Virus genome (UHGV): UHGV-1339911
Source: a virus
Reading direction: 5' to 3' (one strand)
Length of the DNA stretch: 12,823 nt
This document shows positions 1 to 12,823 of the stretch, one piece after another; positions within the stretch are counted from its first letter, which is position 1; each line of letters starts with the position of its first letter. The translations under genes were made by a program, and so were the position numbers. The notes beneath the pieces were generated by a model. The model was not told where the DNA came from, did no database searches, and worked only from the letters and a program-made list of their open reading frames with translations.

Positions 1-1272
1 AACGCCAGACAGGTCGAGACAGCAAAGCCAAAAGAGAAAACCTACAAAATGGCCGATGGCGGCGGTTTGTATCTCGAGGTTTCGGCTAAGGGTTCTAAAT
101 ACTGGCGCATGAAATACAGACGCCCCTCTGACAAAAAAGAGGATCGCCTCGCTTTTGGTGTTTGGCCCATGGTGACACTTGCTCAGGCAAGAGCAAAGCG
201 TGACGAGGCTAAAAAGCTCTTAGTGCAGGGCATTGACCCAAAAGCCGAGCAGAAAGAAGCTCAGGCTGAGAATTCGGGCGCATACACTTTCGAAACAATT
301 GCTCGTGAATGGCATGCCAGTAATAAGCGCTGGAGTGAAGACCATCGATCACGCGTTCTGCGCTATCTTGAGCTTTATATTTTTCCTCATATCGGTTCGT
401 CCGACATTCGGCAGCTTAAAACCAGCCACCTGTTAGCCCCGATTAAAAAAGTTGATGCCAGTGGCAAACACGATGTCGCTCAGCGCCTGCAACAGCGCGT
501 CACGGCCATTATGCGTTATGCCGTACAGAACGATTACATCGACTCTAATCCAGCCAGTGACATGGCCGGTGCGTTATCTACAACCAAAGCACGACACTAT
601 CCGGCTTTACCCTCTAGCCGCTTCCCTGAGTTTCTTGCACGTCTTGCTGCATATCGTGGCCGTGTAATGACAAGGATCGCGGTCGAGCTTTCCTTACTAA
701 CTTTTGTACGTTCCAGTGAGTTACGTTTCGCGCGATGGGATGAGTTCGACTTCGATAAATCTCTTTGGCGTATACCTGCAAAGCGAGAAGAAATTAAAGG
801 CGTGCGTTACTCGTATCGTGGCATGAAGATGAAAGAGGAGCATATCGTTCCTCTTAGTCGACAGGCGATGGTTTTGTTAGAGCAACTCAAGCAGATTAGT
901 GGCGATAAAGAGTTACTTTTTCCAGGAGATCACGACTCAACAAAGGTTATGAGTGAAAACACGGTAAACAGCGCATTGCGTGCGATGGGCTATGACACGA
1001 AAATTGAAGTTTGCGGGCATGGATTTAGAACGATGGCTCGTGGTGCGTTGGGTGAGTCAGGTTTGTGGAGTGATGATGCAATTGAGCGTCAATTGAGTCA
1101 CTCTGAGCGTAATAATGTGCGTGCAGCTTATATCCATACTTCTGAGCATTTGGATGAACGTCGTTTAATGGTGCAGTGGTGGGCAGATTTTCTTGATGCA
1201 AATAAAATTGAATTAATATCACCTTTTGATTACGGAAAGACGGTAATATTAAATGAAAACACCCAGCAATAG
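1..1272 (+). CDS. int: P4-family tyrosine recombinase (integrase), 5' end truncated by the window edge
   Basis: ORF track 49..1272, but the frame is open from base 1 with no stop before the ATG at 49, so the true N-terminus lies upstream. N-terminal KxYK-x-DGGGLYLEV-(x8)-W-R-x-K-YR motif is typical of P4-like integrases. C-terminal catalytic signatures HGFRTMARGAL (His-x-x-Arg) and RAAYIHT (Tyr) are present. Stop TAG at 1270-1272. Confidence 0.9.
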   Translation, partial: NARQVETAKPKEKTYKMADGGGLYLEVSAKGSKYWRMKYRRPSDKKEDRLAFGVWPMVTLAQARAKRDEAKKLLVQGIDPKAEQKEAQAENSGAYTFETIAREWHASNKRWSEDHRSRVLRYLELYIFPHIGSSDIRQLKTSHLLAPIKKVDASGKHDVAQRLQQRVTAIMRYAVQNDYIDSNPASDMAGALSTTKARHYPALPSSRFPEFLARLAAYRGRVMTRIAVELSLLTFVRSSELRFARWDEFDFDKSLWRIPAKREEIKGVRYSYRGMKMKEEHIVPLSRQAMVLLEQLKQISGDKELLFPGDHDSTKVMSENTVNSALRAMGYDTKIEVCGHGFRTMARGALGESGLWSDDAIERQLSHSERNNVRAAYIHTSEHLDERRLMVQWWADFLDANKIELISPFDYGKTVILNENTQQ

Positions 1273-1292: not shown

Positions 1293-4200
1293 TTAAATGT
1301 GATTATCCCATTCATTTTTTATTTCGTCGAATTCATTTTTAGAATTGCACATTTTTTCCCATTCCTGAATTATATTTGGTTGTACAATACCTAGACGTTT
1401 GTTGTTGCAATAAATAGATGCTGCTAATTTTGTCGCGCTAAGTTTTTTTTCTAGATAGCTTAAGTGGTCATTATTGTTAATAAATTCTTTCCCATCCTCG
1501 AATAATAGGCCAGTTAAACCGCAATGAATTTTATTCATAAACTCATCAGAAATTGTAAAATCGCTAGAGCTTATTATAAACCTGACTAAATCATAGCATT
1601 CAGGAAGACATGGATCACGATTCCAGGCTATTTTTTCACTAAGTATTGTGATAATTTCTGGTGGGTACTCTTTATTTCTTATTAGTACATATACAGAGTT
1701 TATTGCTTCAATGACTTCTGTTTTAATGAAACTATATAACCCAGAACCTATATCTTTTAATAGGTCGCTTGAATGGTTCTTTTGATTCATTAAAAGCATA
1801 GTTAGTGCAGAATTTACAGGGATTCCTGATTTTTTCATCTTTTCTATCAAGTTTGTAATATGAATAATTGATTCACTATTCAATTTATTATAGTGGATTT
1901 CTAAAATTGTAGTGATAATTCTTGTTATGTTTTTAAATCTATGTGTAAATTCTTTTGATAAATCGTCCCGTTTCTCAAGCCAAATTTTATCATTGGAAAA
2001 CCACTTATTCATTTCAGATATGATCTCAGATAAGATAGTTTCGGACGGGGTTATATGATGAAGGGCACCATTAAGTTCGTTACAATAATTGTCGTTACCA
2101 CCTGTTATAGTAACGCTATTACCATTTTGAATAGGAAAATTATATGTTTTTATAATGGAAATAAATTTATCCTGAATATTTTCATTTTCAGGGTGAAGGT
2201 TATCTATAAAGAAAAATCTATAGTAACCACTATTAATTGGAAATCCATATTCATCGCGTTTAGCCCATAGGTTTTTTATTAGTTTTGAAATATCAGACTT
2301 GTTAAGTAGATCAAGATTATACAATGTAATTAACTTTTGTGATGCTGCTTTTCTTAAATCTTGATCTTCGCTTTTTAAATCATCAATATCTTTTCTGATT
2401 TTGGAAGATGTTATTTTTTTCAATAAACCATTAGGTCGTTTGATAATTGAAGCCAGTAGACATTCAAAAGGAGTAATAAAATTATATTTTTGACCCATAC
2501 CTAAATGATCATTAGAGGGTTTCGACGGATAATCGATAAAAATATCTATGAGGGATATTTTTTGAGAGTCATTCATACTCGCTATAGTACGTCTAAGCAA
2601 ATCCTTTGTCTCAGCAAAATCATAAAACCCCTCAGAGTTATATAACTTAAGAAGAAGGGTTATTATATCTTTTTTCTTTTCAAAAGAAACTTTTGTTACT
2701 AGTCTTGATAATATTTCAGGAATGATTGATAGGGTGGATAACTCTATTTCAAGCTTATCGCTAAGTCTTTCATCTATTTTTTTTAAGATGATTTGTTCGT
2801 ACTTTTTGAAGTATCCATCAAATAAATCTTCAACTTTTTTTCTTTCTAATAAAGAGAGTCTACCACGGTTAAAAAGACTTTTTGCTTTATCTTTATTAAA
2901 TGTTCTAAATATTGCAAAAATAGCGAATTCAGGGGAGTATGGATATATATGTCGGGATGCGTTTTCAACTATGCCACTAAAAATATTCATTCCAGGTATA
3001 TGGAAAGGCAGTCCAAGTTCTTCTGCTAGCAATAGAAAGTTGAAAGCATCTAAGGATTTAAGTTCCGCGGGACTCCCACCAAAATAAGTTGTCACAGTTC
3101 TTCTGTTAAGATCAAAATCAGTATCCTTTGAATTCTCAGATATACCTTGTGGGGATTCTAGTTTGATTTCTAAATACTTAATTTCGTTTTCTGGATCGCT
3201 ACGATATTGAGATAAAGTTGCTAATCTAGAATTGTATTCTGAAGTGTAATCATCGTTCTTGTTATTATTTTTCAAGCTTCTCTTGAACATTCTTAATATA
3301 TAAATGCAATAAGCTTCTTGGGACTCACTTGAATAGTCGATGTTCCTTGATGATAAAAGACTATTTCGGCGAATAGTTGATAAAGTTTCTTCAAGAAGAT
3401 TAATGGCTTCATCGAGCATGCCAAACTCAGCAAGTAGTCCCGCTCTTTTAATTTCATACTGTGGAAGAAGTTTATTTGTTTCCCAATTTGAAAGTTTTGT
3501 TCTGGCTTCATCAAAGTTCAATCTAAAATAAGAATGTAGGATATTCTCGTAATAGAATTCAGATTTAACTTCTGGAGTTAGTCTTTCTAAATTGGGAATC
3601 AGTAAATGATTTAATTCTTTCCATTTTGCTGTGAGATTCTCTTGGCGACAAAATTTCATTAAATTAATAACGATGGCTGAATATTTATCATCCAGATCTT
3701 TGTTTATTATGTTGTTAGTGTATTCGTCTTTATATTTTTCTGTGAGTTTAAATAAAAACTCTGCTGTGTCATTAAATATAGGTAGTAATGCTTTATTTAA
3801 TCGCCAAGTTAACTCATAACCAAAATTAATTTCTGCATATTTTTCCCAAATCACATCGTAGGTAACTACTGCCAACCACTCTCTAGTATCACGCCAAAGA
3901 TTACTGCGATTAGATTCAGGCAAAATAAGCCAGTTAGGATAAGATTTTCTTAATGATCCCCACTCAATAATGCATCGATTTATTTTTTCCATTTTTATTT
4001 CAGGGGTGTCATCGAAAGAAATGTGTTCTCGATTTTTTATTATTGGCCACTCTATTAAATTTTCTTTGTTTTTTGTTTCGTAGAGGGACTCTATAAAATG
4101 TTGATGAGCTAAATAATGATCTTTGCCAAAGTCCCCAAGTAAACTCAAGTCCACGATTGATATGTTTCTTTTTTCAAGCAATTTGCGCTGTGCTTCATTG

Positions 4201-4922
4201 AATGAGAAAAGACCTATCAGATAAATTTTTGGTGAGTTTTCTGCTCCAAGATTATCTCTTATCCAGCCAATCCAGTTAAGGAAATTAGGATCATCACCAG
4301 AAAAACCAATCAAACAAAGAGTATTTTCAATGAGTGATTGCTGTACTGTATTTACAAATGGTGAGTTATCTAAAGGATATTTCCTGTAATCTTCTTCAGT
4401 AATTATAAAAGGCCGCTCTGATGGGAAGCTTCCGTGAAGTTTGATGATCCTAGGTCTTTCAGCATTCATCAAATCACTTTTATTCAGTACCACATCATAT
4501 TTTCTGGAGTCAACATATACACATGCACGCTCAAGCAACGTGTCATAGTTAGTTGTAAAAACATCAACCCATGGTAACGATAAAAGAGAGATGTGTAATT
4601 TAGATGGTTCATACTCTTTATCAGGAACATGATCCATTATCAACTTATCAAGTGTTGCACGGCCGAAGGCGGCTTGTACCTCATCGCCAAGTTTGAGTAC
4701 ATTTAAATATTTGTTTAAATTTTTCTCACAGTAAATATTTTCATAAAAAATATCGCCTAAATCATTCCACATTGGGAATTGTCGTGCCTTGTTTGTTAAA
4801 GGTTTTGCATTTCGACTAAATCCAGCACCAATGAGTATTGCTGCGCGACCATCCCAAAGGCGAGATGATATATTATTTAATAGCGGTTTGATTTTTTTCT
4901 TATTTGTCATTATATATTCCAT
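1293..4922 (-). CDS. Large SIR2-domain fusion protein (defence-associated sirtuin / DSR-like); candidate single-gene NAD-depleting anti-phage protein with an unassigned ~950-aa C-terminal region
   Basis: Uninterrupted 1209-aa ORF. N-terminal ~260 aa carry SIR2_2-type motifs in canonical order: AAILIGAGFS (aa 27-36), VFTTNYDTLLE (aa 121-131, putative catalytic Asn125), IIKLHGS (aa 159-165, putative catalytic His163), CLIGFSGDDPNF (aa 203-214). No Walker A/P-loop seen anywhere in the protein. Gene is visibly AT-rich compared with its neighbours and lies between int and the late operon. Start-codon choice (M1 at 4920-4922 vs M5) is uncertain; no strong SD for either. Confidence 0.8.
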   Translation of the reverse strand: MEYIMTNKKKIKPLLNNISSRLWDGRAAILIGAGFSRNAKPLTNKARQFPMWNDLGDIFYENIYCEKNLNKYLNVLKLGDEVQAAFGRATLDKLIMDHVPDKEYEPSKLHISLLSLPWVDVFTTNYDTLLERACVYVDSRKYDVVLNKSDLMNAERPRIIKLHGSFPSERPFIITEEDYRKYPLDNSPFVNTVQQSLIENTLCLIGFSGDDPNFLNWIGWIRDNLGAENSPKIYLIGLFSFNEAQRKLLEKRNISIVDLSLLGDFGKDHYLAHQHFIESLYETKNKENLIEWPIIKNREHISFDDTPEIKMEKINRCIIEWGSLRKSYPNWLILPESNRSNLWRDTREWLAVVTYDVIWEKYAEINFGYELTWRLNKALLPIFNDTAEFLFKLTEKYKDEYTNNIINKDLDDKYSAIVINLMKFCRQENLTAKWKELNHLLIPNLERLTPEVKSEFYYENILHSYFRLNFDEARTKLSNWETNKLLPQYEIKRAGLLAEFGMLDEAINLLEETLSTIRRNSLLSSRNIDYSSESQEAYCIYILRMFKRSLKNNNKNDDYTSEYNSRLATLSQYRSDPENEIKYLEIKLESPQGISENSKDTDFDLNRRTVTTYFGGSPAELKSLDAFNFLLLAEELGLPFHIPGMNIFSGIVENASRHIYPYSPEFAIFAIFRTFNKDKAKSLFNRGRLSLLERKKVEDLFDGYFKKYEQIILKKIDERLSDKLEIELSTLSIIPEILSRLVTKVSFEKKKDIITLLLKLYNSEGFYDFAETKDLLRRTIASMNDSQKISLIDIFIDYPSKPSNDHLGMGQKYNFITPFECLLASIIKRPNGLLKKITSSKIRKDIDDLKSEDQDLRKAASQKLITLYNLDLLNKSDISKLIKNLWAKRDEYGFPINSGYYRFFFIDNLHPENENIQDKFISIIKTYNFPIQNGNSVTITGGNDNYCNELNGALHHITPSETILSEIISEMNKWFSNDKIWLEKRDDLSKEFTHRFKNITRIITTILEIHYNKLNSESIIHITNLIEKMKKSGIPVNSALTMLLMNQKNHSSDLLKDIGSGLYSFIKTEVIEAINSVYVLIRNKEYPPEIITILSEKIAWNRDPCLPECYDLVRFIISSSDFTISDEFMNKIHCGLTGLLFEDGKEFINNNDHLSYLEKKLSATKLAASIYCNNKRLGIVQPNIIQEWEKMCNSKNEFDEIKNEWDNHI

Positions 4923-4969: not shown

Positions 4970-5502
4970 AGCAAATTTTGACCGCAGGGACATCATTACG
5001 AATGAAATTTGCACATCTCGGATTATCGTACATATCTATTGTTGAAAAAACATGCTTTCACTGCAACCCTCACTCGCTTCGCAAGGCGTTTTCAATTCAA
5101 ATTCAAACATGGTCTGCGACCGTACGGTATCTGGTGCTGGTCAAGATAAAAAGGTTGATGAAACGTATAGCTGTATCATGCTCACTTTGTATGACAAAGC
5201 GTGCGTGCTAACTGTATATGTGCAGCTTTCCACTGTTATTGCGGAGAACCTGATATTTAATAGGCTATTATCCCCTCAATAGTTGTCCATACCTCCTAAC
5301 AGTACAGCATTATTTGGAAGGGAGTTCTCTTTATCGTATTGATTTTACCTCAACACCTGCGCTGATATATAAGGCTGAGGTTACCATTTTCTTCTTCATC
5401 GCGAGCAGCCCCGCCCGCCTGCCCGCTTCGCTTAACAGACTGGTTTTCATGCACCCCGTAAATCGTCTCAGAAGCCACCACACAAGGGCTTTCGCGTCAA
5501 AA

Positions 5503-5628: not shown

Positions 5629-5901
5629 TCAGACAGGAATTTGCTGACGGCTTGACAGCTTTGACGCGGAGCCATAGCGGTTGAGAGTTTGCTGTTGTTT
5701 TTCAGGCATTTGTGCTTTGTCTGATTCCCGTTCATTGCGCCAAGGCTTCATAATTATCGTATCCACGCTTTCCAGAGCGGTAAATGTGCAGGAACATTCC
5801 AGATTCTGGCACTGATACCATGAGCGTTTAACCGATGGAGCTTCATAGGCACTGGTTCTGGCGTGAGCGACCGTCCCACATTCAGGACACTTCAGGGCCA
5901 T
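5629..5901 (-). CDS. ogr: Ogr/Delta-family zinc-finger late-gene transcriptional activator (single Ogr-like unit, 91 aa)
   Basis: MALKCPECGTVAHARTS...YQCQNLECSCTF...ESV matches the Ogr/Delta Cys4 zinc-finger signature (C-x2-C ... AHARTS ... QCQN-x2-C). I place the start at the internal ATG 5899-5901, which has a strong SD (AAGGAGG about 8 nt upstream) and sits immediately after the psu stop; the ORF-track start at 6003 overlaps psu and lacks an SD. Confidence 0.85.
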   Translation of the reverse strand: MALKCPECGTVAHARTSAYEAPSVKRSWYQCQNLECSCTFTALESVDTIIMKPWRNERESDKAQMPEKQQQTLNRYGSASKLSSRQQIPV

Positions 5902-5902
5902 A

Positions 5903-6457
5903 TCAGTACCCTCCTTTTTCATTAAGTCGGTTAAGGCGGGCCAGGAAAACTTTATGTTGTGCTGGGGTGAAACTGGCTGAAGCATCAGCGCACATTGATG
6001 CATCCACCGTTAATCCGGTTTCGTCGATAATGCTCTTGTATGCTGCTGAAATTACCGGAGTACGCACTTCCGTTTGTCGGGCTACAGCGGTTCGTAATAT
6101 TTTCATTGCCGCCTCAAGCCCGTATGGAGCGCAAAGAAAAGGAGCCAGAGCGTCAGTGAGTGCATCACCATGCTCGCTCATGAAGTTTTCCGTTGCGCTT
6201 GTAACACAACTCTCCAGCACAATCTGGTGAGCATAAAGACCATCCCGTGCAGCACAGTTAATCTGCCATTCGAGGACTGCAAGACGCTCACGAAGATCCT
6301 CAAGCTGGCTGGCATATGCTGCCAGTTTTTCTTCAGTATCCAGCAGAGCCGCCAGACGAAGCTGGCAGGTACTTTGCGTATTACGTAGTGTCAGCCAGCT
6401 TTTTATCGCCGAGCGGTAATCGTTGAGTGCTTCCTGAGTAATGCTTCCGGCATTCAT
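5903..6457 (-). CDS. psu: Psu-like protein (polarity suppression / capsid decoration protein of P4-type satellites)
   Basis: 184 aa. Segments FMSEHGDALTDALAPFL and the C-terminal FTPAQHKVF resemble P4 Psu as I recall it (FMQQHGTALAAALAPEL, FTPAQNMIF). Start overlaps the sid stop (ATGA), implying translational coupling. Confidence 0.75.
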   Translation of the reverse strand: MNAGSITQEALNDYRSAIKSWLTLRNTQSTCQLRLAALLDTEEKLAAYASQLEDLRERLAVLEWQINCAARDGLYAHQIVLESCVTSATENFMSEHGDALTDALAPFLCAPYGLEAAMKILRTAVARQTEVRTPVISAAYKSIIDETGLTVDASMCADASASFTPAQHKVFLARLNRLNEKGGY

Positions 6458-7206
6458 TTCTTCTCGCCCCCTTTAACCATGTCACGCTGTTTAAGCATCC
6501 GTGAACGCGCTGCAGGGCTGGGGGATTGTCTGGCATCTTGGATGGCTTTATCGTCCGCATAAATGCTGATCCCCGGCAGGGTAATATCATCCGTTGAAGA
6601 TACGTTACAGGACAGTGCCGGAGTGGTGAGTTGCTCGCTGATAAATTGCTTCAGCACACTTTCGGGGTCGTTTACGGTATGAACTACACCGATAACAGCA
6701 GAAGCGCTTCGGCCCAGAGTCATTTTCAGCAGTCCAAGGATCTGAATAAGTTTCTGGCCGTGTTCCTTCATAAACTCATTCCAGAGCCACACTGCATGAG
6801 TTTCAATCAGGCGATTATGCTCACTGATGTAGTGGTTTGCAGCATCCGCAGTTTTCCAGGGCAGGAATTCATTTTCTGCCGCCTGAGCTGCCAGCAAATC
6901 TTCGAACTCATCCAGTGTTTCGCGTCCGAGGGCGATTTCTGCCCGCAGTTTTTTCATGCGTGGCGTCATATTTCCCTGATTCTCACGAAACAGGTTTCGC
7001 CATTCATCATTAAGCGCCTGCGTTTCCGTTTTTGTATCTTCCTGACGTTTACGGATAGTTTCAATCATTGCAGCAGCTTCAGTTTGTTTTCGCCGTTCTT
7101 CCTGCCAGACAGCTTTTGCTACCTTAACTTTATCCACCGCTTCGCGAATTTTCGGTGGGAGGGAGGGTGTAATGTTTGCATCAGGGATCTGGTTAACAGT
7201 AGTCAT
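6454..7206 (-). CDS. sid: Sid-like capsid size-determination (external scaffold) protein
   Basis: 250 aa, charged and helix-prone, first gene of the leftward operon, immediately upstream of psu and ogr/delta. Size and position match P4 Sid (~244 aa). Assignment is mainly from synteny and size; I cannot confirm sequence similarity without a search. GGAG lies 5 nt before the ATG. Confidence 0.6.
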   Translation of the reverse strand: MTTVNQIPDANITPSLPPKIREAVDKVKVAKAVWQEERRKQTEAAAMIETIRKRQEDTKTETQALNDEWRNLFRENQGNMTPRMKKLRAEIALGRETLDEFEDLLAAQAAENEFLPWKTADAANHYISEHNRLIETHAVWLWNEFMKEHGQKLIQILGLLKMTLGRSASAVIGVVHTVNDPESVLKQFISEQLTTPALSCNVSSTDDITLPGISIYADDKAIQDARQSPSPAARSRMLKQRDMVKGGEKK

Positions 7207-7278
7207 GACTGCTCCGGTAGTGTTTTATTGTCGTGTCAATTGTGCCGGTGCCCATACAAGCGCACTACCGAGGGGGAT

Positions 7279-7310
7279 TGTGCCAGTGACAGAACAATGA
7301 CCTTGTTCTG
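7279..7310 (-). promoter_or_regulatory. Candidate Ogr/Delta-activated late promoter element (TGT-N12-ACA dyad) overlapping an 8-bp palindrome, upstream of sid
   Basis: TGT (7279-7281)-N12-ACA (7294-7296) matches the activator-site consensus described for P2/P4 late promoters. Its centre is about 80 bp upstream of the sid ATG, compatible with a site centred near -55 and a short leader. Adjacent perfect palindrome CAGAACAA-tgacc-TTGTTCTG at 7290-7310. Confidence 0.45.
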
Positions 7311-7360
7311 GCTAGCCAGAGAAATGCGTCATGTCTGATCTTCAACTTTCCTTTAATACA

Positions 7361-7580
7361 TACTATTCACTACTGTTCACTTTGATAAAAAAATTGATAA
7401 TACAGCTAGTTAAGAGGTGAAGGGTTGACAAGGCAGTATTCAGTGACTGTTCATGAGTGTTCATCGGAAGGCTGCGTGATTTATGATTTTTTTTCATCAA
7501 AAGTGAAATTTTTATTCCTAATGATTATTTTATTATTGTTCCTCACAACTATTCACCACTCTTCAGTAGTATTCAACAGA
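7361..7580. repeat. Array of iteron-like octamers related to TGTTCACC (ori-like) in the AT-rich control region
   Basis: TATTCACT 7364-7371 and TGTTCACT 7374-7381 (10-bp phasing); TGTTCATG 7448-7455 and TGTTCATC 7458-7465 (10-bp phasing); TTCACC at 7552-7557 and on the minus strand at 7416-7421. No ORF of 60 aa or more in 7339-8060 on this strand. Confidence 0.4.
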
Positions 7581-8118
7581 TGATGAAATAGACGATTTTT
7601 CTTTGCCGGGAAATAACATGATTCCCCCTTTTCCTGGTGTTGCATTTCAATCTGATTTTTATAAAACTAGAACTGTTCGGTCTTTTATGAATTTATTTGT
7701 ATATATTTTTAGGTTAAGAATGCGTGGTTATTGATTTTATGCGGTTTTAATGCTTCTGAGCTTGATGCAATTCATGAGTATATCCTGAAGTTAGGTTTGC
7801 AATGTAAAACCATATGTAGAAATTGTGCACCCCTGCTGAATGGGTTGCGGTTTCAGTACCATTAAGTTCTATGACTTATGGGGTAGTAACCCCTGGATGA
7901 AAGTTAGTTCCTATTAATGCCCCTGTATTTATAGTTCGCAGGCATAATATTTATCATGCCATTTTATGTGGTTTGATATAGTTTTAAATTCCATTAAATC
8001 AATATGTGACACTAAATAAATAATGGGTGCGTAAGCGAGCAATATATACATAATAAGGAGCTACCTGAATCCGGGGGGATTTATCCGGACTGATGAAGGA
8101 ATTAAAGAGGGTAGATAA

Positions 8119-8379
8119 ATGCATGATATTTCTGTTTCTGCGCCAGCTCCGGCTGCGCCATTATTTCCTGTGCTGAACCAGCATGAGCGATTTTTACGTC
8201 TTCCCGAGGTGATGCATTTATGCGGCTTGTCCCGCTCAACTATATACGACCTGATAAGCCGCGATGCTTTCCCGAAGCAGATCCCGCTTGGTGGTAAAAA
8301 TGTTGCCTGGGCACAGTCAGAGGTAAGCGCATGGATGGCGGATCGTATAAGTGCCCGCGGACGGGGATGTGATGCATAA
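8119..8379 (+). CDS. alpA: AlpA/Vis-family phage DNA-binding regulator (excisionase-like HTH)
   Basis: 86 aa. [53 protein letters not shown] is the typical AlpA/Vis helix-turn-helix core. SD GAGGG sits 7 nt upstream of the ATG. Confidence 0.85.
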
Positions 8380-8473
8380 TGATGCCTGAACGCATTAATC
8401 CCCTTTTTTCTGGCTTGCATCCTGCAGTCATTTCCAGGTATAGTTTTCCCGCTGCCGCAAAATCGGCTGCCGG

Positions 8474-8725
8474 GCGTAGGAACCCGAGTTACTTATTGGC
8501 GACACCAGACGCGCCGTGCGTCTTTTTTTACGTCGTTGCTCAGGCACACCCATTTTTCGGGCTGCGGTGCTTATACCTTAGTCCCTGTCAGATAATGGTG
8601 GTCCGGGCGGGGCAGCCTTCGGGCTGGCCGGTTTCCAATAAGGCCGGTATTCCTACCCCCGTCTGGGCTACCACCCATGAGCGTAGGAACTCCGGTGGTG
8701 GCATTTACCGCGACTTATTGGAGGT
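8474..8725 (+). promoter_or_regulatory. Candidate P4 CI-RNA-like immunity leader (seqA / seqB / seqC-like complementary repeats)
   Basis: Direct repeats GCGTAGGAAC...ACTTATTGG at 8474-8499 and 8681-8721. Between them, 8635-8658 (CCAATAAGGCCGGTATTCCTACCC) is approximately their reverse complement. The second direct repeat overlaps the GGAGG SD of the downstream small gene. The region is GC-rich and its conceptual translation (first ~118 aa of ORF 8379..8924) is low-complexity. Confidence 0.35.
8507..8529 (+). terminator. Intrinsic terminator-like hairpin plus T7 tract inside the alpA-downstream leader
   Basis: Stem AGACGC / GCGTCT (8507-8512 and 8518-8523), loop GCCGT, followed by 7 T (8523-8529). 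Lies inside the ORF-track ORF 8379..8924, arguing against that ORF's 5' part being translated. Confidence 0.5.
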
Positions 8726-8732
8726 TGCCCTT

Positions 8733-8924
8733 ATGGCTACGATCCTCGCCCCTTCACATCCTCAATTTATATTTGTTTTTGCCGCCGTTCGTCGTGCAGA
8801 ACGTAAACCACGTATCAGTATGCTGCGTATCGTCGCCAGCAATGAGCATCATGCACGTCTTTCACTGGTCCATGAGTATGTGCTTTGCCTTGCTGCTCGC
8901 CTGCCTGTCCGGGAGGTGATGTGA
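8733..8924 (+). CDS. Small early-operon protein, possibly Icd-like (host cell division inhibitor family)
   Basis: 63-aa short form starting at ATG 8733 with GGAGG 8 nt upstream ([63 protein letters not shown]). The C-terminal ...ARLPV... pattern resembles Icd-like proteins of P4-type elements as I recall them. Family assignment is tentative. Confidence 0.45.
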
Positions 8925-9145
8925 TGAATCACGCCGCAATCTCTTATGACGATATTGTCCGCCTGAAGCATCTTCGTAACGTGGGGGAGTTTGTCACCGG
9001 AATGGCTGTTCTTCAGGATTGCTACGAAAAACCTGCCGGTGCTCAATGTGAGCAACTGGCTTCCCTGATTTATCTGATGACAGAGCAACTTGATGGCGTG
9101 GTACAGCGTTGCCAGGATGACCTGATGAACATGGAGGTGGTGTAA
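8924..9145 (+). CDS. Hypothetical small protein (73 aa), early operon
   Basis: Start ATG 8924 overlaps the upstream stop (ATGA) with GGGAGG 7 nt upstream. Placed at [10 protein letters not shown] rather than the ORF-track start at 8885, which lacks an SD. No recognisable domain. Confidence 0.55.
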
Positions 9146-9474
9146 TGAAATCACGCACCCTTTCCCTTTCCCTTTCACTTCGGGTAGCGTTGTATCGCCG
9201 CGCGGTAGCCTGCGCCTGGTTGAGTGCCTGCTATCAGCAAAACCGCCATCTGCAGCTCACTCTGGATGAAATTGAAACCGCTATTGCCCGTGAGCTTGAA
9301 GGATTTTATCTGCGACAGCACGGGCAAACAAAAGGCATGGAAATCGCCTGCGCTCTGCTTTCAGACCTGATGGAATCCGGCCCTCTAATGTCCTGTCCCG
9401 CACTCTCCCAGCTCGGAATAGCCGTAATGGATGAGTTATGCGTCCGTCACATCAAAAAGCCGGTTTTACACTGA
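9145..9474 (+). CDS. Hypothetical small protein (109 aa), early operon, immediately upstream of the primase gene
   Basis: Start overlaps the previous stop (TAATG) with GGAGGTGG upstream. Position is analogous to the small genes preceding alpha in P4, but homology was not verified. Confidence 0.55.
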
Positions 9475-9488
9475 GGGAGAACTGCGTC

Positions 9489-11819
9489 ATGTCAGGAATG
9501 AAAGTCAGTCAGGCCGTGAAGGCTGCCCGCGGTCACTGGGCTAAGATTCTGCCAGCGCTGGGCGTGAATATATTGAAAAATCGCCATCAGCCTTGCCCGG
9601 TCTGTGGCGGTAAAGATCGTTTTCGCTTCGACGATCAGGAAGGACGCGGAACATGGTTCTGCAATCAGTGCGGTGCCGGGGATGGTATAGCGCTTGTCAC
9701 CAGGGCACTGAATGTGGATATCAGTGAAGCAGCTGACAGGATACATGGACTGACACATGGTCTGTCTGTAGTTAATTCCGAAGTCAGGGCGTTAACCGCC
9801 GATACCGATAGCGGGAAAGATGCAGCAGCACTTGCCGCGCGACTGCTGCAAGCCTCACGTGAATCTGCCGGAAACACTTATCTTACACATAAAGGTTTCC
9901 CGGAGCATATTTGCCATGAGCTGACTTCAGCTCATAAAACCGGTGGGGTGATGTTCCGCCCCGGTGATTTGATCGTCCCGCTCTATAACGCTGACGGGGA
10001 GCTGGTGAATATTCAGCTTATCAGTGGCAATGGTAGCAAGTGTTTTCTTAAAGGAGGTCAGGTTAAGGAGGCCTATCATCTGATAGAAGGGGGCGGGAGT
10101 TCTTTAAGAAGGATGTGGATTGCGGAAGGTTACGCCACGGCGCTTACCATTCATCATCTGACAGGAGAAGCCGTCATGGTGGCATTTTCGTCGGTCAACT
10201 TTCTTTCTCTGGCCAGCGTTGCCCATAACAAGTATCCGGGATATCAGTTAATTATTGCAGCGGACCGCGATCTGAATGGTTCAGGCCAGAACAGGGCTGA
10301 AACTGCTGCAAAAGCGTGTCAGTGTGACATTGTGCTGCCACCGGTTTTTGGTGACTGGAATGATGCGCTTACCCAATACGGAGAGGAATCCACCCGGAAG
10401 GCAATTCTTGAGGCTTTGAAGCCACATAATGCCAGTCCTTTCGACACAATGAGTGAAGCAGAATTCACAGCGATGAGTGTCAGCGAAAAAGCTCAGAGGG
10501 TTCGGGAGCATTACAGGGATGCACTGGCGGTTGATCCGAACGGGCAGCTTTTATCCCGCTACGAGTCTGGAGCGTGGAAAGTGATTTCTCAGTCAGATTT
10601 TTCCCGAGATGTCGCAGCCCTTTTCCAGCGCCTCGGTGCACCGTTTTCCTCAGGAAAAATTGCCTCACTGGTGGAAACATTAAAGTTAATTGTTCCGCAG
10701 CAGCAAAATCCGGCACGTCATCTGATTGGTTTTCGTAATGGCGTCCTCGATACGCGAACAGGGCTTTTTAGTCCGCACTGTAAAGAGAACTGGCTGCGTA
10801 CCCTGTGTGAAGTCGATTTCACGCCACCGGTAAAGGGGGAAACGCTTGAAACTCATGCCCCGGCATTCTGGCGCTGGCTGGACCGGGCTGCCGGACACAA
10901 GCCAGCTAAACGCGACATTATTCTTGCGGCGTTATTTATGGTGCTGGCGAACCGCTATGACTGGCAGCTCTTTCTGGAAGTGACTGGCCCTGGTGGAAGT
11001 GGCAAAAGTATTCTGGCTGAAATTGCGACCATGCTTGCTGGAGAGGATAACGCCACCTCTGCGACCATTGAAACGCTGGAGTCCCCGCGAGAACGTGCGG
11101 CTCTGATAGGTTTTTCTCTTATTCGCCTGCCTGATCAGGAGAAGTGGAGCGGCGACGGCGCCGGGCTTAAGGCTATAACTGGTGGCGATGCGGTATCGGT
11201 GGACCCCAAGTATCAGAATGCTTATTCAACACATATTCCGGCGGTTATCCTGGCCGTAAATAATAATCCTATGCGCTTCACTGATCGTAGTGGTGGTGTG
11301 TCCCGCAGGAGAGTGATTCTGCATTTTCCTGAGCAGATAGCACCGGAAGAACGCGATCCGCAGCTGAAAGATAAAATTGCTCGAGAACTGGCTGTGATTG
11401 TTCGCCAGCTCATGCAGCGTTTCAGCGATCCGATGAGCGCCAGAACATTGCTTCAGTCGCAGCAGAATTCAGATGAGGCTCTCACCATCAAGCGTGATGC
11501 TGATCCAGCATTTGATTTTTGTGGCTATCTTGAGGCATTACCTGACACCAACGGTATGTTTATGGGGAACGCTAATATTGTCCCACGCCAGCCACGTACC
11601 TACCTTTACCATGCCTACCTCGTATACATGGAGGCTAATGGCTATAAAAACATCCTGAGTCTTACGATGTTTGGCAAAGGGTTGCCAGTCATGCTGAAGG
11701 AGTACGGGCTACATTATGAGAAACGGCGAACTAATCAGGGAATGCAAACTAACCTCACTTTGAAAGAGGAGAGTAATGCAGACTGGCTGCCCAAGTGTGA
11801 TGAGCCAATATTAAAATAA
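9489..11819 (+). CDS. P4 alpha-type bifunctional DNA primase/helicase (zinc-binding primase domain, TOPRIM, P-loop helicase)
   Basis: Zn-finger CPVCGG...FCNQCG; TOPRIM-like acidic motifs (WIAEGYATALT, IIAADRD); Walker A VTGPGGSGKS. I prefer the start at ATG 9489 (MSGMKVSQ...), preceded by GAGGGAGA, over the ORF-track start at 9438. Confidence 0.9.
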   Translation: MSGMKVSQAVKAARGHWAKILPALGVNILKNRHQPCPVCGGKDRFRFDDQEGRGTWFCNQCGAGDGIALVTRALNVDISEAADRIHGLTHGLSVVNSEVRALTADTDSGKDAAALAARLLQASRESAGNTYLTHKGFPEHICHELTSAHKTGGVMFRPGDLIVPLYNADGELVNIQLISGNGSKCFLKGGQVKEAYHLIEGGGSSLRRMWIAEGYATALTIHHLTGEAVMVAFSSVNFLSLASVAHNKYPGYQLIIAADRDLNGSGQNRAETAAKACQCDIVLPPVFGDWNDALTQYGEESTRKAILEALKPHNASPFDTMSEAEFTAMSVSEKAQRVREHYRDALAVDPNGQLLSRYESGAWKVISQSDFSRDVAALFQRLGAPFSSGKIASLVETLKLIVPQQQNPARHLIGFRNGVLDTRTGLFSPHCKENWLRTLCEVDFTPPVKGETLETHAPAFWRWLDRAAGHKPAKRDIILAALFMVLANRYDWQLFLEVTGPGGSGKSILAEIATMLAGEDNATSATIETLESPRERAALIGFSLIRLPDQEKWSGDGAGLKAITGGDAVSVDPKYQNAYSTHIPAVILAVNNNPMRFTDRSGGVSRRRVILHFPEQIAPEERDPQLKDKIARELAVIVRQLMQRFSDPMSARTLLQSQQNSDEALTIKRDADPAFDFCGYLEALPDTNGMFMGNANIVPRQPRTYLYHAYLVYMEANGYKNILSLTMFGKGLPVMLKEYGLHYEKRRTNQGMQTNLTLKEESNADWLPKCDEPILK

Positions 11820-11830
11820 CGATTAACTGA

Positions 11831-11855
11831 CCCGGCTGATGCCGGGTTTCTTATT
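11831..11855 (+). terminator. Rho-independent terminator after the primase gene
   Basis: Stem CCCGGC / GCCGGG (11831-11836 and 11841-11846), loop TGAT, followed by TTTCTTATT. Begins 12 nt after the primase stop. Confidence 0.6.
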
Positions 11856-11877
11856 GGAAACGCACAAATGTAGAGAT

Positions 11878-12090
11878 AGCTGTTCACTCTTCACCTAGCT
11901 GTTAACACATAATCAATTGATATATATGTAAAAAATTACAGGGTGAATAGTGTGCATGGTTTTGCGAAAAAAAAGTATTTTTTGTAGAGTCAAGTCCCGG
12001 TTTGGATCCGTTTAACGGAACCTAACTGGATTGACTATTTCTCTGAGAATTTTTGGATAAATAATCAACAAAAATCAAAATGTGAACAGA
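11878..12090. repeat. Iteron-like octamers (crr-like) downstream of the primase gene
   Basis: TGTTCACT 11881-11888, TTCACC 11890-11895, AGCTGTT duplicated at 11878-11884 and 11897-11903, GGTGAATA 11942-11949 (minus-strand TATTCACC), GTGAACA 12083-12089 (minus-strand TGTTCAC). An exact TGTTCACC also occurs further right at 12773-12780. Confidence 0.4.
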
Positions 12091-12180
12091 GAATGCTGGG
12101 GGCACAAAAGGGGGCATAATTGAATTAACTATAATTAAATTTCAATTTTTACAATAAGTTAAATTTATGTGCGAGTCCGG

Positions 12181-12212
12181 CCTTCGCACCTTCGCACCTT
12201 CGCACCATCGGA
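12181..12212 (+). repeat. Tandem 8-bp repeat (CCTTCGCA) x3 plus a degenerate fourth unit
   Basis: Read directly: CCTTCGCA at 12181-12188, 12189-12196, 12197-12204, then CCATCGGA. Confidence 0.8.
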
Positions 12213-12221
12213 ACATCAATA

Positions 12222-12244
12222 GACGTCAACGGACGTTTTTTTTA
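12222..12244 (+). terminator. Terminator-like hairpin followed by a T9 run, with no annotated upstream ORF
   Basis: GACGTC-AACG-GACGT stem-loop immediately followed by nine T (12236-12244). Could end a small RNA or a short unannotated transcript. Confidence 0.4.
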
Positions 12245-12270
12245 TGACTGAAATCCGCGCCACACAAGGC

Positions 12271-12317
12271 TTTTCGCTATTTTTCGCTCAACCTAAGTCA
12301 ACCTACATCAACTTACT
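12271..12317 (+). repeat. 10-bp-phased direct repeats: TTTTCGCT(AT/CA) x2 then TCAAC(C/T)TA x3
   Basis: TTTTCGCTAT 12271-12280, TTTTCGCTCA 12281-12290; TCAACCTAAG 12288-12297, TCAACCTACA 12298-12307, TCAACTTACT 12308-12317. Helical-turn phasing suggests a protein-binding array. Confidence 0.6.
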
Positions 12318-12409
12318 GATGTGGATACAGCTACAGCTGCGGCTATATCCCGATTCGATAATGTTTGTACCCACACAAAACCCTTGAAAGGCTACAAGGC
12401 TGAAATTGT

Positions 12410-12595
12410 CTAAACCATAGAGATGATTTTTATGATCCAGTCTTTCTCTTGTTGAGATAGTTCCAGTTTGCTCACTCGTGTTAAGAAGGTATTGATCACC
12501 TGAACATCCGAATTGGTGAGCCTATTTAATAGAGCGGGTGGTATACCTTTACTAACAATTGCTTTGCGGTGACTTTCGTAGTTTTTATTACTCAT
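12410..12595 (-). CDS. Small hypothetical protein (61 aa)
   Basis: ORF with a good SD (GAGGA 6 nt upstream of the ATG at 12593-12595). No recognisable motif; could be a fragment or a small regulator. Confidence 0.4.
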   Translation of the reverse strand: MSNKNYESHRKAIVSKGIPPALLNRLTNSDVQVINTFLTRVSKLELSQQEKDWIIKIISMV

Positions 12596-12823
12596 TGGTG
12601 ATCCTCAAATATCATTGTATAGCGGCATTGATCGTTTCCAGCAACCTTTACTTACTCACTTCAAACTGCATCCTCGTAGACTGTTCCACTACAATAATCG
12701 AAAAGGCGCGGATGTCCATTCAGGTATCCCGCTAATACGTATAGCAATAACAATGGTTTATGCGGTGCGCGCTGTTCACCCTTATGCCAGATTTTTATAT
12801 TGGCAATTGCCTGCTGTAGCGAT

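Follow-up and report, generated by a model that had tools for sequence, protein, structure and literature searches.

An ori-like and a crr-like iteron cluster on either side of the alpha gene in a P4-like satellite prophage of Escherichia coli

The virus genome UHGV-1339911, a stretch of 12,823 nucleotides that in its whole length is called the window here, holds a P4-like satellite prophage integrated at P4's own attachment site, the leuX tRNA gene of Escherichia coli. The question that this locus raises is whether the short repeats found on both sides of its primase-helicase gene alpha are a replication origin of the P4 type. A preliminary description, made from the sequence alone, had noticed octamers resembling the P4 iteron TGTTCACC in clusters about 4.5 kb apart and had suggested that the element keeps an autonomous alpha-dependent replicon. 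As detailed below, the two clusters very probably constitute a bipartite origin, with an ori1-type site in the gap between sid and alpA and a single-unit cis required region for replication (crr) that follows the alpha terminator and precedes the right attachment site attR. Judged from its intact parts and their conservation, the element likely is an autonomous alpha-dependent replicon.

The P4-type initiator reportedly works independently of DnaA. The C-terminal domain of P4 alpha is said to bind the type-1 repeats of both ori and crr, which are reportedly both needed in cis, and P4 replication is reported to be bidirectional from ori, with a need for neither DnaA nor DnaG. Cnr is said to modulate the DNA binding of alpha and so to limit the copy number.

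The two clusters and their counterparts in P4

In the GenBank record of P4 (X51522), 'ori type 1 repeats' are annotated at 9310-9413. In a pairwise alignment of window positions 7207-7640 with the sid-ORF88 intergenic region of P4, the repeats I1 to I6 of the window (Table 1) fall one-for-one and in register on the six annotated P4 repeats. The layout is identical in both, two direct repeats being followed by an inverted one and by three further direct ones, and, counted from the first repeat, the positions are 0/10/52/73/84/94 bp in the window versus 0/10/53/75/86/96 bp in P4, so that the spacing agrees within 2 bp. Also the location is that of P4, namely the intergenic region between sid and alpA/ORF88: the sid-like gene of the window starts at 7206 and is followed by I1-I6 at 7364-7465, and P4 sid starts at 9583, with the repeats at 9310-9413, which in both cases puts them some 150-270 bp from the start of sid. 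Homology extends beyond the repeats to the A-rich spacer with its TAATACAG block, and the blocks AAAAAA..GATAATACAG..GTTAA..GGTGAA align with the P4 ori as well as with about 40 related loci.

The differences from the P4 ori are threefold. All six P4 repeats are exact TGTTCACC, whereas none of the six in the window is (0/6), three having one mismatch and three having two; what the window repeats keep is the hexamer T[A/G]TTCA, or CTTCA in the case of I3. Secondly, the window has an additional well-formed trio, I7 to I9, which is spaced exactly 10 bp and lies beyond a 15%-GC stretch that, by its composition, is a candidate unwinding element; P4, in contrast, has just degenerate TGTTTACT/TGTTTGTT repeats after its own trio. 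Thirdly, the intergenic region comprises 912 bp in the window and 552 bp in P4, which lacks about 330 bp.

These 330 bp (7600-7930) are apparently non-coding, with open reading frames (ORFs) of at most 44 residues and mostly TTG starts, and have no counterpart in P4, but they align closely with the element of E. coli EDL933; they might encode a small RNA or a small protein, or serve as promoter DNA. At 7961-7990, three degenerate 10-bp units (ATTTTATGTG GTTTGATATA GTTTTAAATT) align with the 'ori type 2 repeats' of P4 (GCTTTAAGTG, GCTTTAAATG, ACTTTAAGTG). A 52-residue ORF at 7425-7583 that overlaps the iterons was dismissed as spurious, as it starts with TTG, spans the repeats and coincides with no RefSeq gene in near-identical copies.

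The second cluster lies downstream of alpha. In P4, the 'crr (cis required region for replication)' is annotated at 4291-4590 and consists of two 120-bp direct repeats with five type-1 repeats each; the annotated repeats of P4 also include the variants TGTTCACA, TATTCACC and TCTTCACC. In an alignment of window positions 11820-12230 with the att-proximal part of P4, the stretch 11881-11958 matches one such 120-bp unit, with offsets within 1 bp. The repeats C1-C3 align with TGTTCACCCTTCACC...TATTCACC in both P4 units, and C4-C5 align with GGTGAACAGTGTGAACA. The order is shared, with direct TGTTCAC-CTTCACC, a further direct repeat after 18-19 bp and then an inverted pair, and the offsets from C1 are +19/+61/+70 bp in the window and +18/+61/+70 bp in P4. 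As in P4, the crr follows the alpha terminator and precedes an imperfect palindrome, the attP arm repeats and the att core. A second 120-bp unit as in P4 was not found in the alignment, and the window thus has a single-unit crr, in which TGTTAACA and TGTGCATG are degenerate. An inverted TGTTCACA at 12081-12088 was rejected as a part of the crr, as it has no iteron counterpart in P4 or in the related Kluyvera locus (L054) and is shared only by near-identical E. coli copies.

By position, layout, spacing and sequence alignment, the two clusters belong to the P4 ori1/crr class. The distance from ori to crr is 4517 bp with crr downstream of alpha, so that the P4-like geometry that had been proposed holds, and the alignment with the P4 ori and crr, which had been named as a check, is in register including spacers and flanking landmarks. 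The pairs that had been listed at 7364-7381 (TATTCACT/TGTTCACT) and 7448-7465 (TGTTCATG/TGTTCATC) lie exactly there, the pair after the primase gene is TGTTCACT/TCTTCACC at 11881-11895, and the copy at 11942-11949 is an inverted TATTCACC. The list of sites in the preliminary description was right for I1, I2, I5, I6, C1, C2 and C4, but missed I3 (7416-7423), I4 (7437-7444), the trio at 7550/7560/7570, C3 and C5, and its inverted copy near 12083 is present, two positions further left, without being part of the crr. None of the ori or crr repeats matches the octamer exactly. The earlier observation is thus partly confirmed, and its interpretation is supported by the comparisons.

Also the proteins that would act on these sites are intact. 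Alpha is complete and shares 73% identity with P4 alpha over its full length; the zinc motif, the Toprim residues and the Walker A box are conserved, and its Pfam matches (Zn_Ribbon_Prim, Toprim_3, D5_N, DUF5906 and Pox_D5) are those of a P4 alpha-type initiator. Directly upstream, the DUF5375 gene is a homologue of P4 ORF106, which we take to be the copy-number control gene cnr. The family that includes P4 cnr lies between epsilon and alpha in 90% of P4-like elements (PMC8628076). Residues 670-769 of alpha match the solved origin-binding domain of P4 (PDB 1KA8, E = 6e-49), which is a winged helix (PMC2777425).

If these parts work together as their P4 counterparts do, alpha would be made from the cnr-alpha operon after derepression or excision, and its C-terminal winged-helix domain would bind the helically phased iterons at ori and crr. 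The two alpha-bound sites would then interact across about 4.5 kb, the adjacent AT-rich DNA would be opened, and the SF3 helicase and primase activities of alpha would start bidirectional theta replication, with the Cnr-like protein restraining the copy number. Sets of short phased repeats on the flanks of an AT-rich region, to which an initiator encoded by the element itself binds, are also a feature of the origins of E. coli phage-inducible chromosomal islands and of iteron plasmids (PMC6092414, Fig. 2). The arrangement in the window differs from these in being bipartite, its second set of iterons lying about 4.5 kb from the first and being of a kind that is required in cis in P4, and in that the initiator is a fused primase-helicase and not a Rep protein.

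Table 1. Positions of the repeats, genes and other features in the window
Feature	Position	Strand	Remarks
Tyrosine integrase	49-1272		Pfam; truncated by the window start
SIR2-domain protein, 1209 residues	1293-4922	minus	Pfam; Dsr2 by annotation in near-identical genomes
Ogr/Delta zinc-finger protein			Pfam
Psu and sid-like Psu homologue (Psu twice)	5629-7206	minus	Pfam
ori iteron I1 TATTCACT	7364-7371	plus	aligns with P4 9406-9413
ori iteron I2 TGTTCACT	7374-7381	plus	10 bp from I1; aligns with P4 9396-9403
A-rich spacer with block AAAAAA..GATAATACAG	7382-7415		aligns with P4 TAATAAAAAAGATAAGTAATACAG; conserved across relatives
ori iteron I3 GGTGAAGG (minus-strand reading CCTTCACC)	7416-7423	minus	aligns with inverted P4 repeat 9353-9360, GGTGAACA
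ori iteron I4 TATTCAGT	7437-7444	plus	aligns with P4 9331-9338
ori iteron I5 TGTTCATG	7448-7455	plus	11 bp from I4; aligns with P4 9320-9327
ori iteron I6 TGTTCATC	7458-7465	plus	10 bp from I5; aligns with P4 9310-9317
AT-richest stretch of the region, 15% GC	7480-7539		composition profile; separates I4-I6 from the third trio
Third trio, I7 TATTCACC	7550-7557	plus	
Third trio, I8 TCTTCAGT	7560-7567	plus	
Third trio, I9 TATTCAAC	7570-7577	plus	
AlpA-type regulator	8119-8379		Pfam
Ash-family ORF (Ash/Icd-like)			Pfam
isrK Hfq-binding RNA	8451-8528		Rfam, 72 bits; inside the Ash/Icd-like ORF
C4/CI antisense RNA	8591-8678		Rfam, 82 bits; inside the Ash/Icd-like ORF
DUF5375 gene	9145-9474	plus	Pfam, E = 6e-48; matches P4 ORF106
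alpha gene, 776 residues	9489-11819	plus	Pfam zinc-ribbon, Toprim, D5_N, SF3 helicase, Pox_D5
Terminator-like hairpin and T-run, CCCGGCTGATGCCGGGTTTCTTATT	11830-11853	plus	aligns with annotated P4 t-alpha terminator
crr iteron C1 TGTTCACT	11881-11888	plus	direct
crr iteron C2 TCTTCACC	11888-11895	plus	direct
crr iteron C3 TGTTAACA	11900-11907	plus	direct, degenerate
crr iteron C4 GGTGAATA	11942-11949	minus	inverted
crr iteron C5 TGTGCATG	11951-11958	minus	inverted, degenerate
Imperfect palindrome GGTTTGGATCC..GGAACCTAAC	11999-12027		between crr and attP arm sites; aligns with P4 GGTTTGGATCCgagctacGGATCCAAAC
attP arm-type repeats GGGGGCACAAAAGGGGGCATA	12099-12119		identical to P4 arm repeats annotated at 4151-4174
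attR core, copy of leuX 3' end	12172-12209	plus	aligns with P4 attP core; right end of the element

Conservation of the sites and alternative explanations

One genome per species was scanned with an alignment of the two alpha proteins. Of the 80 loci that this yielded, about 60 have a full-length homologue of alpha, at 38-96% identity. In most loci whose alpha is at least 55% identical, the mapping of octamers with at most one mismatch showed clusters both upstream of alpha, at a constant distance, and directly behind the gene, and a BLAST search with the ori and crr cores found homologues in about 40 loci each. A multiple alignment of about 40 alpha-encoding loci revealed a single conserved ori design in Enterobacter, Citrobacter, Kluyvera, Klebsiella, Raoultella, Serratia, Erwinia and others, and the I1/I2 pair is present in about 40 related loci. 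At least 20 loci have one crr unit and 14 have two, and the comparison across the family suggests that the duplicated crr and the exact octamer are traits of P4 and its close relatives, not of the whole class. In several loci, the crr lies farther downstream, behind inserted genes.

The window belongs to a subclade of five, together with the E. coli O157:H7 EDL933 element, E. coli 10_253, Scandinavium lactucae (L067) and Enterobacter (L044), the alpha proteins of which are 81-98% identical to that of the window. The degenerate versions of the repeats and the third trio are common to all five, and the I3 variant GGTGAAGG is shared by the window, the EDL933 element and S. lactucae. The hexamer cores of I5 and I6, together with ACTGTTCAT around I5, are invariant in five relatives. 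In the nine iteron hexamer cores, 45 of 54 columns (83%) are invariant, compared to 75 of 186 (40%) in the rest of the ori (Fisher P = 2e-8, five sequences; the Kluyvera ori was left out, as other DNA occupies the examined part of that locus), and the sites are thus under purifying selection. Octamer positions 7-8, in contrast, vary freely across the subclade. The core that is recognised in this lineage seems to be the hexamer T[A/G]TTCA, positions 7-8 being relaxed, as opposed to the strict P4 octamer TGTTCACC.

The crr is conserved as well. C1 is kept in E. coli 10_253, Kluyvera, Enterobacter and S. lactucae, and C2 in all of these but Kluyvera, which has the degenerate TCTACACC; the window-type crr (CTGTTCACTCT..GGTGAATAGTGTGCA) is common to the window, Kluyvera and E. 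coli 10_253. In the Enterobacter and S. lactucae elements, the crr is retained 1.36 kb downstream of alpha, past an inserted gene. Within the complete E. coli genomes, this ori variant was found at 95% identity or more in 50 and in versions of about 70-80% in about 530 more, and the crr variant at 90% or more in 172. As a side observation, the gene that separates alpha and crr (7331-8760 in both L044 and L067) has a product that begins with MKTVFVLGAGFSKEAGAP; its insertion in front of a retained crr makes the alpha-crr junction another insertion point for cargo.

Several points weigh against a functional origin. Neither the nine ori repeats nor the crr repeats include an exact TGTTCACC, and I3, I4, C3 and C5 have 2-3 mismatches each. 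The inverted repeat that leads each crr unit in P4 has no clear counterpart in the window (5/8 matches at 11867-11874). Moreover, the origin-binding domain of the subclade shows no visible difference from that of relatives with more canonical iterons, so that no protein change explains the additional degeneracy of the iterons. Deletion of a single ori iteron reportedly inactivates the P4 oriI, and degenerate sites could accordingly mean reduced or lost function.

According to the most serious alternative, the sites are homologous to the P4 ori and crr but decaying, the element being a domesticated defence carrier without self-replication whose iterons drift from the consensus. Most relatives have 2-6 exact ori octamers where the window has none of six, several of its sites have two or three mismatches, its crr is single-unit, and its attR core, which has lost 1 nt in comparison with the leuX 3' end and carries an 8-bp triplication, could hinder excision; the reported inactivation by loss of one iteron would add to this. 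However, the degenerate versions are themselves conserved across E. coli, Scandinavium and Enterobacter, with the invariance of the cores given above, alpha and the cnr-like gene are intact, and the crr has been kept after cargo insertion. The single-unit crr is the commoner state of the family, and the occurrence of the same backbone with many different cargo genes in E. coli suggests a mobile lineage. As the variant repeats are conserved across genera and the crr is retained, decay is an unlikely explanation.

It is still far less probable that the repeats are mainly operators, which would regulate the divergent sid and alpA/late-left promoters through Delta/Ogr, AlpA or Cnr alone, while replication would start elsewhere, for example at an ori2-like site in alpha. 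The ori cluster indeed sits where the promoters of sid and alpA diverge, and a second P4 replicon is said to use an ori2 inside alpha together with crr. But the same motif recurs at the crr downstream of alpha, where there is no promoter to control, the corresponding P4 repeats are annotated as origin repeats and have reportedly been shown to bind alpha, and a 10-bp phasing beside an AT-rich block is typical of origins.

How much the repeats exceed random expectation depends on the motif that is counted. An octamer count against shuffled sequence, which had been proposed as a check, gave a divided answer: the window contains one exact TGTTCACC versus 0.29 expected (47 of 200 shuffles reach one), which is chance level, and 16 copies with at most one mismatch versus 8.3 expected (P ~0.01), and in the same 2000 dinucleotide-preserving shuffles four hits within 250 bp have P ~0.0045 and two separate clusters of at least three hits P ~0.0015. 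The singleton near-matches inside genes (9124, 10004, 11399 and others) occur at chance frequency. On the same strand, T[ACG]TTCA occurs in eight copies within 230 bp (7364, 7374, 7437, 7448, 7458, 7550, 7560 and 7570), 10 or 11 bp apart inside each group, whereas shuffling gave six at most, in 1500 rounds each for the whole window and for the intergenic region alone. The excess of the octamer alone is thus modest and the signal of the hexamer core much stronger. Octamer counting was rejected as the decisive test, as it is of modest significance and would wrongly take in the copy at 12773; what decides is the alignment with P4 and the relatives. That the octamer-like words are random matches in AT-rich intergenic DNA, without common origin with the P4 iterons, would fit the chance-level exact count, the one-mismatch excess of only about twofold and the position of the sole exact copy outside the element, but this is refuted for both clusters by the in-register alignments including spacers and landmarks, the layout conserved in about 40 loci and the hexamer cluster never reached in shuffles, so that the probability left to it is negligible, and it stands for the site at 12773 and perhaps for that at 12081.

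The prophage, its ends and its cargo

The assignment as a P4-like satellite at P4's own site follows from the gene set found by Pfam scans of the window ORFs, from the 72.6% nucleotide identity to phage P4 in the block from alpA to alpha, and from near-identical copies (99.4-99.9%) in four complete E. coli genomes, where they adjoin the tRNA-Leu gene leuX beside ahr/idnK. This gene is outside the window, about 170 bp beyond its left end, and a search for tRNA genes inside the window found none. From domains, Rfam matches and the RefSeq annotation of near-identical copies, the core order is int, psu, delta, sid, alpA, ash/epsilon region and alpha, and the stretch with isrK and the C4/CI RNA is the P4-type RNA immunity region. 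E. coli genomes have up to five places that match the window. The window shares with the P4-like satellites of Enterobacterales the order int, hotspot cargo, delta-psu-sid, alpA, ash/epsilon, cnr and alpha, the integration at a tRNA gene, and a defence gene, here Dsr2, in the hotspot between int and psu (Moura de Sousa & Rocha 2021, PMC8628076; Rousset et al. 2022, PMC9122126).

The cargo in this hotspot (1293-4922, minus strand) is annotated in near-identical genomes as the anti-phage sirtuin Dsr2, and in other elements with the same backbone (95-98% identity) the hotspot holds genes annotated as a DEAD/DEAH helicase with HamA, an S8 peptidase with an AAA ATPase, or an RNA-directed DNA polymerase. 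A further ORF of 73 residues (8924-9145), between the Ash/Icd-like and the cnr-like gene, has no Pfam match; it is probably a member of a 75-residue family known from P4-like elements, which is present in 61% of them and absent from P4 (PMC8628076). The cos sequence of P4/P2, GGCGAGGCGGGGAAAGCAC, has no match in the window at up to three mismatches, and a G+C-rich stretch related to cos (CCCCGCCCGCCTGCCCGCTTCGC) lies at 5398-5435, where cos would be expected. This suggests that the cos of this element may be a variant, and perhaps that the helper is a different one.

At the right end, the att core consists of GAGTCCGGCCTTCGCACC followed by two additional copies of TTCGCACC, and the leuX 3' end across the prophage reads GAGTCCGGCCTTCGGCACCA. 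Similarity to other E. coli copies ceases at 12190, after which different genomes carry different DNA, and the element thus ends at about 12209. Within the attR core, 8 bp are triplicated in tandem (GCCTTCGCACC TTCGCACC TTCGCACCA) and, as in other E. coli copies, one nucleotide is deleted in comparison with the leuX 3' end at attL (CTTCGGCACCA), which could affect excision; two of the loci (L002 and L003) have the deletion and a single copy of the 8-mer. What lies to the right of attR (12210-12823) is outside the P4-like element, and in one of these two loci (L003) the DNA continues with an integrase/MobH island. The exact TGTTCACC that had been counted with the crr cluster is indeed present at 12773-12780, as the sole exact copy in the window, but about 560 bp past attR and outside the element; it is a chance match unrelated to the crr.

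Origin specificity and significance

Among the loci L004-L067, the C-terminal 110 residues of alpha fall into two types that differ in having K/L or T/K at the variable positions of LSLxMFGx, and these correlate with repeats that end in C or T. With the P4-type domain (LSLKMFGLGLP...KRHTKQGIQ), the ori repeats are almost all TGTTCACC and about 8% end in T; with the window-type domain (LSLTMFGKGLP...KRRTNQGMQ), about 46% of the ori repeats have T at position 8. The subclade of the window goes further, as only the hexamer T[A/G]TTCA is kept and a third iteron trio has been added. When alpha residues 1-660 were clustered (a crude unweighted pair group method with arithmetic mean on identities), the two domain types were interspersed, which hints that the domain may have been exchanged together with its sites, rather than having split once. 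It is tempting to suppose that P4-like satellites fall into replicon specificity groups by co-variation of the winged-helix domain and the iterons, but this association is confounded by linkage and shared ancestry, and the supposition is a tentative and rather doubtful one. If it were true, several P4-like satellites could share one cell without cross-talk at their origins.

The survey of the family (PMC8628076), in which genes were catalogued, makes no mention of crr or a replication origin, full-text literature searches for the octamer TGTTCACC, for crr and for iterons of P4-like elements brought up no survey that covers such cis sites, and the papers on P4 cosmids and P4-EKORhE held nothing useful on crr. 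The comparison of ori and crr is new only as an annotation detail, and the biology is ordinary and expected.

For annotation, a simple rule emerges: ori is to be sought in the gap that separates sid from alpA, crr in the stretch from alpha to attR, and the att core is the end of the element. The conserved minimum, a phased T[A/G]TTCA core plus a single crr unit, is useful for the design of P4-based vectors and for predicting cross-replication. The prophage keeps every recognisable part of a P4-type replicon, that is alpha, the cnr-like gene, ori and crr, and these parts bear on whether the element can amplify and spread its Dsr2 cargo upon infection by a helper phage.

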